Shown here: positions 1 to 4,242 of the stretch, one piece after another
Layout: every line of letters starts with the position of its first letter
How positions within the stretch are numbered: position 1 is the stretch's first letter
Origin: a virus
Taxonomy: Duplodnaviria; Heunggongvirae; Uroviricota; Caudoviricetes
IMG/VR virus record: IMGVR_UViG_2740892017_000001
Strand: one strand, 5' to 3'
DNA length: 4,242 nt
Position numbers and translations under genes: made by a program
The notes under the pieces: model-generated
What the model saw: only the letters and a program-made list of their open reading frames with translations
What the model was told of the DNA's origin: nothing
Database searches by the model: none

Positions 1-452
1 GCGATCTGTTCAAATGTTATTACCCGATCTCGATGGAAGTTATTGAGTGATCTCCTTTCATGAAAATACGCAAAAGTCGACACACGGCTGTAAGCCACAC
101 CCGCCATCGCATACGCGCTGAACCATTCATTCACGCGTACAGACGGCCCCGCCATCACGCTGAACCAGCGGTTACGCACGGAATCTTCATGCCAGCGGGT
201 ATCGCTGTAGCGCGTTTTTTGCTCATCCTCAGCATTGGCATAACTGAAGGACGTAATCAGCCCCAGCGCGTCCGTAAACTCATAACGGTATTTCACGTTA
301 ATCCCGTTCAGATCATCACTACCGGGAACGTTCGTCGAGGCATGGAGATACCCCGCGCTCAGCGTGGACTGATGTTCTGCTGCACTCGCTGGCGTAGCAG
401 CGGCGACCTGCCAGACTACTGCGGACAAAATAACAGCACATAATTTACGCAT
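1..452 (-). CDS. lom: Lom-like outer membrane protein (Ail/Lom/PagC family); the Lom-like part covers about 72..452, then the open frame continues with unrelated sequence to the window edge (probably truncated or fused, possibly a pseudogene)
   Basis: Minus-strand ATG at 452..450 with a GAGAGG Shine-Dalgarno (plus-strand complement at 458..463) 5 nt upstream. My manual translation gives MRKLCAVILSAVVWQVAAATPASAAEHQSTLSAGYLHASTNVPGSDDLNGINVKYRYEFTDALGLITSFSYANAEDEQKTRYSDTRWHEDSVRNRWFSVMAGPSVRVNEWFSAYAMAGVAYSRVSTF, a signal peptide plus the first beta-strands of an Ail/Lom-type barrel, closely matching the first ~127 aa of lambda Lom as I recall it. After codon 127 (about nt 72) the translation becomes AYFHERRSLNNFHRDRVITFEQI..., which does not resemble Lom or any beta-barrel strand pattern. 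There is no stop before the window edge. The supplied ORF track does not list this partial ORF; I derived it by hand. Confidence 0.8.
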   Translation of the reverse strand, partial: MRKLCAVILSAVVWQVAAATPASAAEHQSTLSAGYLHASTNVPGSDDLNGINVKYRYEFTDALGLITSFSYANAEDEQKTRYSDTRWHEDSVRNRWFSVMAGPSVRVNEWFSAYAMAGVAYSRVSTFAYFHERRSLNNFHRDRVITFEQI

Positions 453-471
453 AATTACCTCTCGCTTTTCT

Positions 472-503
472 GCAATAAAAAAGGCGCCATTTCTGGCGCC
501 CGT
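472..503 (-). terminator. Rho-independent terminator between J and lom
   Basis: On the minus strand: GGGCGCC-AGAAAT-GGCGCC followed directly by TTTTTTTATT. This is a perfect 6-7 bp GC stem with a 6-nt loop and a U-run, starting about 17 nt after the J stop codon. There is no T-run on the plus-strand side, so it is unidirectional for minus-strand transcripts. Confidence 0.75.
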
Positions 504-519
504 ATCTGGGTTATAAAAT

Positions 520-3500
520 TCAGCTAATCGTGATGCCTGCAGTGGCTTTCTTCATCACCACAACCAGCAAATCGCTGATACTTGCTGTGGGATACCAGTT
601 ATTTACCAGCCATGCTGACACCGAAAACTCCAGTGTCATGTGACCGTGACCGGCAGGCATATCAATAACACCACTGTAAATCAGCGTATTATCCAGCGCG
701 GTACGGTTATAAATTTCAGCACCGTTTTTCCGCACTATCAGACGGCATGAGGAGTAAATATCAGTATGCTCTTTCTCATGTTTAGCGCCGCTGAATGCCA
801 CCGCCGGAATAACAATCTGCCGGTCAAACGGCTGATCGTCATAAACCCTGACGGTAATGGTTCCTGATGGCCACCGCTCCGGTGCACGGGAGTCCCGGGG
901 GAAAGCTTTGCCCACTGTTTTAACGAGATCGCCTTCAATCTGGTTCGCGGACAATTTTCCCAGAACCCGACAGTTCTCGTTAATCGTGACGTTGTTGAGC
1001 GTCCCGGAGTTCGCATTCACGTTACCGCTGATATCGGCATTTTTCGCCGTCAGCCGCCCGTCCGGTGTCAGGGAAAATGCCGGAGGATTACCGCCGCTGG
1101 TAATGGTGGGAGCCGTCAGATATTTCAGGAACACTTCATTCATAAATATCTGATCGCCCTGACCAACAAACATCGGCTTTGTGTTGCCATTCGCAGGATT
1201 AATCATCGCAATCCTGTCTGCCGCCAGCAGCACCTGACTCTGCATTCCTGCTGGCGTATTCTCAATACCGGCACCGATACCCGCAATATAAAGGCGTCCG
1301 TCCTGCATCTGCTGCAGTTTCACGGCCCACATGCTGTTCAGGTTATTATTTGTATCAACCTGAACTTTCTGTATCTGCTGGATTGCCGCACTCTGATTTT
1401 CCAGTTTTTTATTGACGGTCTGCGTGATTTCATTGCTGACATTCGTAATGGACGTCCTGATTTCAGCCAGGTCCGGCGCAAGCTGACCGTTATCAATCTG
1501 CGTCCACAGCTCCTGGGCCAGATGTGTTTTCCCGATTTCTCCTTTGAAAAAATCCAGGTAACCTTCCGCATCATCGCTCGCCCGACCGACAGCCTCCACG
1601 AATGCCGATTTGCCAACAGTATTCACACTGCGGATATAAAAATAATAATCATGGCCCGGTTTGATATTGATACTGGCAGCTATCCAGTACAGCGCCGAGC
1701 CAAGATAGCGGGCTGCGGTTTCAACCTGCCTGATATCCGCAATCCGCTTTTCCGAGAACCAGAACTCAAACTGTACCGTCGGGTCATAAACGGCAAGATG
1801 TGGCGTTGCGGTTATCTGAAAATAGCCCGGCGTCAGCTCAATCCGCGACGGTGCTGCCGGTGCGGCAATCCGGAAGGTGGTGGTGGCAGGTTCACCCTGC
1901 TGGCCATAGCTGTTTATCGCCCGCACCGTCAGGGTGTATTCCCCGAGCGGCAGGCCGCTGAAACGGTGCTCCGTGTCTGCGGTGATGGCGGTGGTCACCA
2001 GTCTGGCATCCGTTCCCTTACCACTGGTCAGGCGCAGACTGAAGCGCACACCCTTCACCACCCGCGGCGTGTCCCATTTCGCCTGCGCCAGATACTGGCC
2101 GTCAGCTGCGCTCACCTCCACCGTCAGGTGCTGCACTGCCGGTGGGATGACGCTGTTCAGGGAACCTGACTGCGGCTCAAAGCGGGCACCGTTATCCACG
2201 ATGGCTTCTTTTTCCGGTACGTGCTGCACCGCCGTGATGGCAAAGGTGCCGTCCGTGTTTTCCCGGATGGAGACACAGCGGAACAGGCGACGGCGCAGTG
2301 ACGGCAGGGAGAGTCCCCACACCCCGTATGTCTCCACACCATCAGGCAGGGTACTGACCTGTATCCGGTCCGGCGCGGGGTGTGCGGTGATGTCCACACT
2401 CACCGGCTTACCGCTGCCGTTAATCAGGTTCACCGCCGATGTACCTGTCTCCGGCAGGGTAACCTCACGGTCCAGCGTCAGGGTGCGGGTGGCAGCATCA
2501 ATGGACAGGACACGTCCGCCGGTCAGGGTCCCGGCATAGTCATTATCACAGATTTCAATAATGTCACCGGGTGTGTGCCGCAGCCCCTGAGACCCGAGCG
2601 TGAAATCCACCGTCTGCGTTTCCAGCAGTTCGGTCTTTATCACCCACAGTCCGGCACGGTGGGCCTGACCGCGGCTGGTACAGCCGAACGCGTCCATCTT
2701 CAGCAGGTTGCGTCCGTAGCGCAGTATGGCTTCCGGGTCTTCCACCAGTTCCGTGGAGGTCTGCCAGCCGTTCTGCGGGTCGGTGTAATTCACCTCCACC
2801 GCCGTGTGCCGGTCCTTCAGGGCACTGAAGCTGTAGCGGAATCCCACGCCGTTATCATCCACCACCACATCGCTGTTGGTGTACGGCCACACCACATCCG
2901 ACGGGCGGTCCTGAACGAACGTCAGCGTCTGACCGTTCCATACCGGCATACAGCGCATCGCAGAGCAGAAATCACTGAGAACGTCCCACGCCTTACGCTG
3001 TTGTGCCAGGTACGCATTAAAGGTCATCCGCGGCTCGGTCCCCCCGAAACCATCCGGGACCGTCTGGTCGCAGTACTGCCCGATGGCATACAGCGCCCAC
3101 TTGTCCACATCCGCCGCCCCCAGACGTTTTCCCATGCCGTAGCGCGGGTGAGTCAGCATGTCCCACAGACACCAGGCCGGGTTGTTGCTGTATGCCGGTT
3201 TCAGACTGCCGTCCCAGATACCACTATACGTGCGTTTTTCCGGGTCATAGTTTGACGGCACCTGGATGATGCGACCGCGGATATGGTAGTTCACCGTCAT
3301 CTGCTGGCCGCCGAACTGCTCCGCATCCACCTGCAGCCCCACAATGGCCGTGTTCGGGTAGCACTGTTTCACATCGATGATTTCGGTGTATGACGACCAC
3401 AGCGTCTTATTCTGCAGCTGGTCCGTGGTGCTGTCCGCCGTCTCCCTGACCATCCGGATGTTAAAGGGCCGGGGAGGCAGATTATCCAGAATCACCGAGG

Positions 3501-3993
3501 CCAGGAACTGTGAGGTGGTCTTGCCGTTAATGGTGACGTCCTTTTCTGTCACCCAGTTACCGTTACGCTGTAACTGAATCAGCAGGCGGACGGATGCCGG
3601 GTTACGGTCACCCTTTGAGGTGGTCTCCACCAGTGACTGCACCCCGAAGGTAACCCGCAGGCGGTCAATGTTCGCGGACGTAATGGTGCGCGTCACCGGT
3701 TTTGCCTTCGTCACTTCCACGCCCAGTCCGGTTTCAGCTCCGGAGGACTCAAAGCCTTCCGGTGGTGTCTGCTCCTGCTCCCCGGCGCGCCAGACCGCCG
3801 TCACACCGTGTATCACGGGATTGCCGTCCGTGTCCGTCAGTGGGGTTTTGTTCACCAGAATACTCTGCAGTCCCTTCACCGGACCTTCTATCGGTCCCTC
3901 ACCAATCGCATCAATCACGCTCATCATCTGCGTGGATTTGAGATTATCCTTCGCCTCACGAGGCGTGTGTGCCTTACCGCCACCTTTTCCCAT
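520..3993 (-). CDS. J: Lambda J-like central tail fibre / host specificity protein (tail tip attachment protein), 1157 aa
   Basis: Single uninterrupted minus-strand ORF, ATG at 3993..3991, stop TGA at 522..520. It is preceded by a Shine-Dalgarno-like GGGGAAGG (plus-strand complement at 3998..4005) 4 nt upstream of the ATG. The N-terminus [22 protein letters not shown], and internal motifs such as [55 protein letters not shown] and [41 protein letters not shown], match my recollection of phage lambda gpJ (1132 aa) nearly residue for residue over most of the length. Size and position next to lom also match the lambda J-lom arrangement. Antisense ORFs inside it are GC-driven artefacts. Confidence 0.95.
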
Positions 3994-4090
3994 ACAGCCT
4001 TCCCCTGAATAAATTAACCGCCACTTGCCATTCCGTACAGAAGTCGGATATCCTTCGCCCGAAAAGCATGAAACACATTTCTGCCATGCT

Positions 4091-4131
4091 AAAGAGAAAC
4101 CCCGGTATCAGCAGATACCGGGGTTTTCTTT
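4091..4131. terminator. Strong GC-rich hairpin flanked by A-run and T-run; candidate bidirectional intrinsic terminator upstream of J
   Basis: Plus strand: AAAGAGAAA-CCCCGGTATC-AGCA-GATACCGGGG-TTTTCTTTC. This is a perfect 10-bp stem (4100..4109 pairing with 4114..4123) with a 4-nt loop. It is followed by a T-rich tract on the plus strand (4124..4131) and, read on the minus strand, by TTTCTCTTT (complement of 4091..4099). Confidence 0.55.
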
Positions 4132-4174
4132 CATGCCCACCGATAATCCTGTTGGTTAAAACCGGTAATGGTAA

Positions 4175-4209
4175 GCGTCAACGGAGCACCGTATTGACGC
4201 TTATTTATT
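4175..4209 (+). terminator. Second hairpin followed by a T-rich tract (weaker terminator-like structure)
   Basis: GCGTCAA(4175..4181) pairs with TTGACGC(4194..4200), and an inner CGG/CCG extension (4182..4184 with 4189..4191) encloses an AGCA loop. It is followed on the plus strand by TTATTTATT (4201..4209). On the minus strand it sits immediately after a TAA stop (4203..4201) but lacks an adjacent U-run. Function uncertain. Confidence 0.3.
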
Positions 4210-4242
4210 GGTGAGTACTACGTTCCATGGCAGGAGTTCGTC
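4201..4242 (-). CDS. Possible 3' end (last 13 codons, ...DELLPWNVVLTNK*) of an unidentified ORF entering from beyond the window
   Basis: Only one minus-strand frame is open from the window edge; it ends at TAA 4203..4201 and the other two frames hit stops within about 10 codons. The C-terminus does not match what I recall of lambda gpI (tail assembly protein I), but my recollection of gpI is unreliable. Far too short to identify. Confidence 0.25.
   Translation of the reverse strand, partial: DELLPWNVVLTNK

Follow-up and report, generated by a model that had tools for sequence, protein, structure and literature searches.

An IS66-family terminus abutting the J-proximal part of the I-J spacer, very probably in a degraded PPompW-like prophage of Escherichia coli

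Background

The late operon of bacteriophage lambda contains the run L-K-I-J-lom, and this gene order is shared by the lineage of lambdoid phages considered here. Late genes of such phages may be separated by morons, that is, by extra DNA with its own promoter and terminator (Juhala et al. 2000, as cited in PMC4104026), and this lineage has additions of that kind too. We examine here the region directly upstream of the tail-tip gene J (positions 3994-4242) in a Caudoviricetes sequence of 4,242 nucleotides (IMG/VR record IMGVR_UViG_2740892017_000001; this whole stretch is called the window below), which a prediction made from the sequence alone had described as an atypical non-coding gap with two hairpins. 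The extra DNA between I and J differs from an ordinary moron in that it is made of an antisense small RNA (sRNA) gene and a putative terminator cassette, not of a protein-coding gene, and in the window it is interrupted by an insertion sequence (IS).

The closest described occupants of the I-J spacer are sRNAs. PasB is an 83-nt Hfq-dependent sRNA encoded on the minus strand of strain E2348/69 (NC_011601.1, 1466343..1466261; Pearl Mizrahi et al. 2021, PMC8550237, Table S6), where it was detected with the Northern probe AATCCCGCAGTGATCGCGGAGCT; its locus is also treated by Zhu, Shabalina and Storz (2026, bioRxiv 10.64898/2026.05.13.724894). EcOnc22, EcOnc23 and EcOnc24 of the O157 strain Sakai are about 85 nt long and are destabilised in a delta-hfq mutant (Tree et al. 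2014, PMC4104026, Table S2). The PasB table of the 2021 paper lists no homologue of PasB in enterohaemorrhagic E. coli (PMC8550237).

An IS66-family terminus upstream of J

The region upstream of J is composite, and very probably represents the end of an IS66-family element, ISEc23, joined to the J-proximal part of the native I-J spacer in a degraded PPompW-like lambdoid prophage of E. coli. A megablast search of 3900..4242 against 5426 complete E. coli genomes separates it into two unrelated pieces that meet at 4171/4170. Positions 4171..3900 match thousands of prophage J loci with 100% identity, and the first 71-72 nt, read on the minus strand (4242..4171), are matched elsewhere. Only one record, that of isolate 30348_2#256 (NZ_OZ039398.1, locus L001), covers the whole query, and there the two parts lie 239 bp apart. 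Nucleotides 1-72 of the minus strand are 100% identical to L001 6001-6072, which includes the end of the annotated ISEc23 transposase coding sequence (6042) and the terminus of the element (6072). The original prediction had taken the stretch before J as a single non-coding region of about 200 bp; only 177 nt (4170..3994) are phage spacer, and 4171..4242 is the right end of ISEc23.

The frame that is open on the minus strand from the edge of the window ends, as had been predicted, with a TAA at 4203..4201, 207 nt before the start of J. What it encodes is the 3' end of tnpC (4201..4242, minus strand), the IS66 transposase gene: the peptide DELLPWNVVLTNK, followed by the stop, is identical to the C-terminus of the ISEc23 transposase of L001 (WP_000080195.1, ending in WPSNRVDELLPWNVVLTNK and a stop). 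The last 13 codons and the stop are present, i.e. only the C-terminal tip of the protein; a related transposase copy, in locus L014, carries the Pfam DDE_Tnp_IS66 domains. The other candidate for this frame, a homologue of the tail-assembly protein gpI (PF06805), is ruled out by the same identity; in relatives the genuine gpI gene stops 342 nt short of J, with pasB coming next.

The ISEc23 copy of L001 is 2532 bp long (3541-6072), has the gene order tnpA-tnpB-tnpC, and is flanked by an 8-bp duplication, GTATATCC. It begins with GTAAGCGTAAAC and ends with GTTGACGCTTAC; read inwards, its left and right ends both start with GTAAGCGT and match at about 22 of 30 positions, as counted by eye. The IS terminus in the window likewise ends in GTTGACGCTTAC, at 4171, which on the opposite strand reads GTAAGCGTCAAC and thus carries the inverted repeat GTAAGCG. 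A second copy, in L014 (1939..4470), has the 8-bp duplication GTATTTTC. The window shares with ISEc23 the last 72 nt, the C-terminus of the transposase and the terminus itself, and the orientation is that of the copy in gene I of L001; it differs in that a single end of the element is visible and that an insertion point 177 nt before J was seen in no collection searched.

Of the two hairpins upstream of J, the one farther from it (hairpin 2; 4203..4172, minus strand; stem AAGCGTCAA..CGG-loop-CCG..TTGACGCTT) is the terminus of the IS and not a phage structure. It falls within the last 32 nt of the element, from the stop codon through the terminal inverted repeat (ending in GCTTAC). Both predicted hairpins are real in the sense that they are far stronger than expected by chance: the folding energy of hairpin 2 is -17.0 kcal/mol against -5.4 +/- 2.3 for shuffled sequences (z = -5.1), and for hairpin 1, the more stable of the two, z = -7.6 (see below).

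Every base of the window matches known sequence, and none of its pieces is of a new kind: they are the end of an IS66-family element, a lambdoid spacer that is common, gpJ, and a truncated lom. In itself the locus is of little importance, being one more decaying prophage that an IS has entered or in which it has caused a deletion. The suggestion of a rearranged or degraded prophage with J-lom set apart from the rest of the tail module was essentially right, since an IS66-family element stands upstream of the J leader and an IS21-family element, ISEc12, cuts lom.

The native I-J spacer and its J-proximal cassette

Positions 4170..3994 (minus strand) are 100% identical to 5002-5178 of E. coli 4/1-1 (locus L002) and to L001 6312-6488; in a blastn comparison, nucleotides 72-4242 of the minus strand align to L001 6311-10481 and to L002 5001-9171 with 100% identity over 4171 nt. 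In relatives without the IS, namely L002 and the PPompW phages (L003), the I-J spacer has 342 bp, and its last 177 nt are the window's 4170..3994, so that the window retains the J-proximal half of the spacer of a PPompW-like prophage. In other lambdoid phages of the Shiga toxin (Stx) type the spacer is about 240-260 bp. The expectation that a tail-assembly gene abuts J, based on a gap of about 60 bp between I and J in lambda (a figure of the original prediction), is therefore the wrong baseline for this lineage. A structured I-J spacer of 240-340 bp is normal in PPompW-like and Stx-type lambdoid phages because it houses the sRNA gene for PasB or EcOnc22-24, and a long gap at this place should not be flagged as anomalous.

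The 177-nt cassette is found in 1446 of the 5426 complete E. coli genomes, with at least 99% identity in 1442 records, and its carriers include ST131 and O157:H7. More distant relatives of the 177 nt were not found in E. coli, and phage records gave near-identical copies only. An exact search for hairpin 1 retrieved 112 IMG/VR contigs and Escherichia albertii. Among the resulting 113 loci, each one whose length permits the comparison has the 177 nt running up to the start of J. The 177 nt hardly vary, yet on their upstream side they meet several different alleles of the I-proximal half, i.e. of the PasB half, of the spacer. The cassette likewise precedes J alleles that are found with another cassette in other loci. 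As judged by sequence comparison, the J-proximal half has at least two unrelated alleles, which we call type A (the one in the window) and type B. What makes the cassette worth attention is that a very widespread and unstudied putative terminator lies directly upstream of J, where it would be cheap to test.

The IS junction (4170/4171, corresponding to L002 5001/5002) falls within 1-2 nt of the mosaic joint at which types A and B begin to differ, the sequences at the joint being GAATTTTTAT/GCCATTACC and TTTTAT/TCCGTCATGA, respectively. This may be coincidence; by our own estimate, a position picked at random in the spacer would fall so close with a chance of roughly 1-2%.

Two routes to the junction

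Two routes may have placed the end of ISEc23 next to the spacer, and both remain conjectural. The first is a fresh, simple transposition of ISEc23 into the site TTTTTATGC/CATTACCG, which is quite possibly what happened, though we stop short of calling it probable. The first 8 nt of phage DNA past the IS end, CATTACCG (4163..4170, minus strand), would then be the target-site duplication, and gene I, pasB and its promoter would lie intact beyond an IS of about 2.5 kb. This fits the IS end being exact to the base and the flank being collinear with the empty site, as well as two independent arrivals of the same IS in the tail module, in gene I of L001 and in the K region of L014, each with a clean 8-bp duplication. 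Against it, besides the flank discussed below, no left junction, at which the duplication could be read, turned up in any collection searched.

The second route is a deletion next to the IS, mediated by the IS itself: an L001-like ancestor with ISEc23 in gene I, in the same orientation, would have lost 239 bp at the right end of the element. Such a loss, which we regard as possible, would remove the remnant of I, pasB, its promoter and a CRP-like site (see below), and would bring the IS end against CATTACCG. In L001 the element lies 239 bp farther upstream with its orientation unchanged, and the remaining 4171 nt of the window are matched there at 100%; that identity is not diagnostic, however, as many IS-free genomes, L002 among them, are equally identical. 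Other deletions that end in this spacer are known, e.g. in NZRM4165, where I is fused into hairpin 1, and in Sakai Sp9, which is without K and I. The flank CATTACCG bears on both routes. It is unlike the two targets seen for ISEc23, GTATATCC and GTATTTTC, which follow the pattern GTATnTnC (the sequence of gene I at the left IS junction of L001 is CCGTATATCC), and this mismatch appears to favour, weakly, deletion over fresh insertion, although two target sites are too few to establish a preference. Depending on the route, the source strain would have pasB either lost or shifted about 2.5 kb from J.

The mismatch of the flank also counts against taking the junction as an inserted ISEc23, and so do two further facts. 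The IS portion of the window has 72 nt only, and a remnant of the element would look alike; and the IS-spacer junction was not found in the 5426 complete E. coli genomes, GTDB representative genomes, JGI metagenomes or IMG/VR. ISEc23 adjoins the spacer in none of the 10 places listed for the exact J protein; one of them, L014, has the same IS in the K region.

A chimeric contig end is very improbable as the origin of the join, even though the window has 72 nt of repeat at each end (IS66 and ISEc12), as is typical of a de Bruijn-graph contig, and the junction was found nowhere else: such a contig enters a repeat by k-1 bases only when reads span the junction, and the breakpoint coincides to the base with the end of the IS, which is what a true transposition or a deletion mediated by the IS would produce.

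Hairpin 1 as a putative terminator

Hairpin 1 occupies 4091..4131 (core 4126..4097) and folds on both strands. It has a perfect GC-rich stem of 13 bp with 8 G:C pairs and a 4-nt loop, AAACCCCGGTATC-TGCT-GATACCGGGGTTT. On the J strand its energy is -29.8 kcal/mol, compared with -10.7 +/- 2.5 for shuffled sequences (z = -7.6), and on the opposite strand -28.3 kcal/mol (z = -7.4); the whole 249 nt of 3994-4242 fold better than 200 of 200 shuffles (z = -3.2). On the J strand the hairpin is preceded by an A-tract and followed by TTTCTCTTT, and on the other strand, counting from the 10-bp GC core, it is followed by TTTTCTTTC; the A and T tracts partly pair with each other. We infer that hairpin 1 is an intrinsic terminator, and, because it has both an A-tract and a T-tract, probably a bidirectional one. 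In a lysogen it would halt RNA polymerase that has not been modified by Q before J-lom, and would also halt antisense transcripts leaving J; in lytic growth, Q-modified polymerase would pass through it.

Several observations speak against the terminator assignment. Hairpin 1 was missed by a simple terminator scan, which took the A/T tracts for stem; the T-tract is interrupted (TTTCTCTTT) and is able to pair with the upstream A-tract; and the 177 nt are so nearly invariant that their conservation is uninformative on structure specifically. Stem and loop are identical in all 113 loci, which makes a covariation test impossible, and variation is confined to the flanking A/T tracts. The tract variants (4091..4099 and 4127..4131; loci L040, L041, L032 and L112) change TTTCTCTTT to TTTCTGTTT or TTTTCTTT, and GAAAGAAAA to GAAAGAAA.

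In the type B spacers of E2348/69 PP6, Sakai Sp9, Sp11, Sp14 and Sp15, PhiR12, JLK-2012 and phage 1717, the position of hairpin 1 is taken by a terminator of the form CAGGCACCC-loop-GGGTGCCTG-TTGTTTTT, again a GC-rich hairpin with a T-run after it on the J strand (e.g. L004 1410..1460, L007 1920..1965, L026 about 590..640 and L027 37700..37745). The two have no sequence similarity. They differ also in that type B has its T-run on one strand only, whereas hairpin 1 has A/T tracts on both sides, and in that type B shows compensatory change, whereas the stem of hairpin 1 is invariant. The compensatory replacement is C:G to T:A (CAGGCATCC/GGATGCCTG), seen in Sakai Sp9 and Stx2c_JNE072859, with a T.G intermediate in PhiR12_2star and PhiR5_1. 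That two unrelated sequences keep a terminator-like hairpin on the sense strand, between the pasB promoter and the ribosome-binding site of J, suggests that the hairpin has a function. The block AAATGTGAAGATATTCAGAATTTTTATTCCGTCATGA, which flanks the type B hairpin, is conserved even where the body of PasB has diverged. Hfq-binding data from Sakai do not cover type A, because the ompW prophage of that strain, Sp9, carries type B and is without K and I; we therefore set them aside as evidence on the cassette of the window.

Other functions considered for the spacer

The cassette could, alternatively, be a small transcription unit, for instance one whose product is an RNA, antisense to the J leader and about 70 nt long, that would run from a promoter-like site TTGCCA-18-TATCCT (4025..4054, plus strand) to hairpin 1 and would regulate translation of J or act in trans. 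The promoter-like site stands upstream of a strong hairpin that has TTTTCTTTC on that strand; the cassette is present, highly conserved, in 27% of E. coli genomes, and behaves as an independent module, associating with several PasB alleles and with J alleles that elsewhere carry other cassettes; and sRNAs are abundant in prophage intergenic regions (PMC4104026). Nevertheless, we consider such a unit doubtful. The promoter match, returned by a promoter scan, is weak (9/12), and 0.5 such sites are expected by chance in the region; no Rfam family matches; type B has no antisense T-run, so that the feature is not kept across alleles; and the Sakai prophage checked for expression data on type A is Sp9, a carrier of type B. 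It is similarly unlikely, in our view, that the type A cassette is a regulatory module of an uncharacterised kind, whether a second sRNA or a gate for J-lom expression in lysogens that only Q-modified polymerase can pass, although its presence in 27% of complete E. coli genomes, and the fact that it is exchanged whole whichever PasB and J alleles flank it, would agree with that.

A structured RNA element, as such, had been among the explanations offered for the gap. For the bases in the window this is not supported: Rfam gives nothing at the gathering threshold for the window or for L002, an E-value scan of the native spacer is likewise without a match at threshold, and the sequence is too invariant for covariation. 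The best sub-threshold matches are terminator look-alikes, e.g. SSRC34_2 with 27.3 bits against a threshold of 48. The idea does apply to the other half of the native spacer, where there is an sRNA gene, pasB. Small open reading frames (ORFs) in 3994..4242, of 8, 24 and 48 codons, were rejected as genes, as they have no ribosome-binding site and span the hairpin or the IS junction; in the other half of the spacer, the frame of a sense-strand ORF is not kept between alleles.

Insertion of a moron, in the sense of a cargo gene that brings its own terminator in between J and the tail-assembly genes, can hardly account for the region. It is true that an ORF stops 207 nt short of J and that a terminator-like hairpin comes after it, but that ORF is the end of the ISEc23 transposase; the stable hairpin is native to 1446 genomes in which no such ORF adjoins it and no IS is present there; and the small ORFs of 3994..4170 (8-48 codons) have no ribosome-binding site and extend across the hairpin or the IS junction. 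No credible protein-coding gene of the moron type is thus seen in 3994..4170. The native spacer may fairly be called an sRNA moron, although its pasB part is outside the window.

The PasB gene in the I-proximal half of the spacer

In intact relatives, the spacer fragment of the window is the J-side continuation of a spacer that bears pasB. Between I and J of 147 lambdoid and Stx phage records, the half next to I (in L002, from 4837 to about 5001) shows 74-99% conservation, and in L002 it has, antisense to J, a near-consensus promoter TTCACA-16-TATAAT and a hairpin terminator with a T7 run that abuts the stop codon of I. It is this gene that keeps I and J far apart in the PPompW-like lineage. 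By our own count, L002 and E2348/69 (L007 1762..1844) disagree at one position in the PasB stretch; in the E2348/69 genome this stretch lies between the end of gene I, at 1466255, and the start of J, at 1466496. Like the spacer at large, pasB has no Rfam match in the scan of L002 at the gathering threshold.

In the window itself pasB, its promoter and its terminator are all absent. The gene lies at L002 4842-4973, and the window starts at L002 5001/5002, so that the IS junction is about 28 nt past the -35 box of pasB. The I-proximal half, with its sRNA of about 83 nt, Hfq-dependent and antisense to the late operon, would thus belong beyond the IS junction, outside the window. A further difference concerns the neighbouring cassette, as E2348/69 and the four Sakai prophages examined have type B next to PasB, and the window has type A.

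The EcOnc22, EcOnc23 and EcOnc24 peaks fall in the I-J spacers of Sakai Sp15, Sp14 and Sp11 (L019 989..1231, L020 920..1162 and L021 970..1212, respectively), antisense to J. The first 23 nt of their Northern probe, GGGAGAGAACGATGAAGATTAAC, correspond to the sense strand just past the PasB terminator in these three spacers. From their position and sequence, the three RNAs are apparently what corresponds to PasB in Sakai, as its homologues. Relative to the current record, coordinates in PMC4104026 are shifted by about 140 nt, a figure calibrated on AgvB. The calibration locus in Sakai Sp10 (L022), used for the offset only, has Rfam matches to STnc100 (728..920, plus strand) and AgvB (921..982, minus strand) that are convergent and lie end to end. 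An anti-sRNA of the AgvB/AsxR type was rejected as a description of the spacer RNA, because RNAs of that type sit at the moron site downstream of PR'.

The level of PasB is reported to be higher in non-activating than in activating growth conditions (PMC8550237). Upstream of the -35 box of pasB, and 10 nt past the IS junction, there is a CRP-like palindrome, AAATGTGA-N6-TCAGAA (L002 4976..4991). Its half-sites are invariant across divergent alleles of the spacer, and the 6 nt between them vary (AGATAT, AGAGTT, AGAAAT). The activating medium perhaps contains glucose, and if so, control of pasB by cAMP-CRP would fit.

Other features of the window and its relatives

J occupies 520..3993 on the minus strand, starts with ATG at 3993..3991 preceded by the Shine-Dalgarno sequence AGGGGAAGG (4006..3998, read from the sequence), and encodes a tail-tip and host-specificity protein of 1157 aa. 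The protein has the Pfam domains FNIII-A_GpJ, Phage-tail_3, Ig_J, Phage_Tail_Tip and Ig_GpJ_C and is identical to that of the WP_000514710.1 loci; in many E. coli genomes this exact protein is encoded downstream of homologues of H, M, L, K and I. Following J there is a 5' fragment of lom (73..452, minus strand; Ail/Lom family), 99.8% identical to the first 380 nt of lom in Sakai Sp9. The likeness ends at position 73, where the gene is cut by an IS; in relatives lom is annotated as a C-terminally truncated pseudogene. Positions 1..72 are the terminal 72 nt of ISEc12, continuous with L001 10410-10481, which leads into istA/istB.

The IS flanks are exactly 72 nt each (ISEc12 up to 72/73 and ISEc23 from 4171/4170) around 4098 unique bases. 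The window is thus probably a complete contig of a short-read de Bruijn-graph assembly (k-1 = 72), bounded by repeats and for that reason not extendable from itself.

Disruptions of the tail module and of the I-J spacer recur among the relatives. The loci concerned are those of the two ISEc23 copies (L001 3541..6072 and L014 1939..4470), L018 2209..2613, L027 37148..37772, L036 and L089. In L036 the spacer is substituted, from 16 nt upstream of hairpin 1, by unrelated sequence that is possibly another IS; in L089 there is an unrelated replacement upstream of the pasB promoter region; in Sakai Sp9 both K and I are absent; and in NZRM4165 a deletion has left gene I running into hairpin 1, within its 3' arm.

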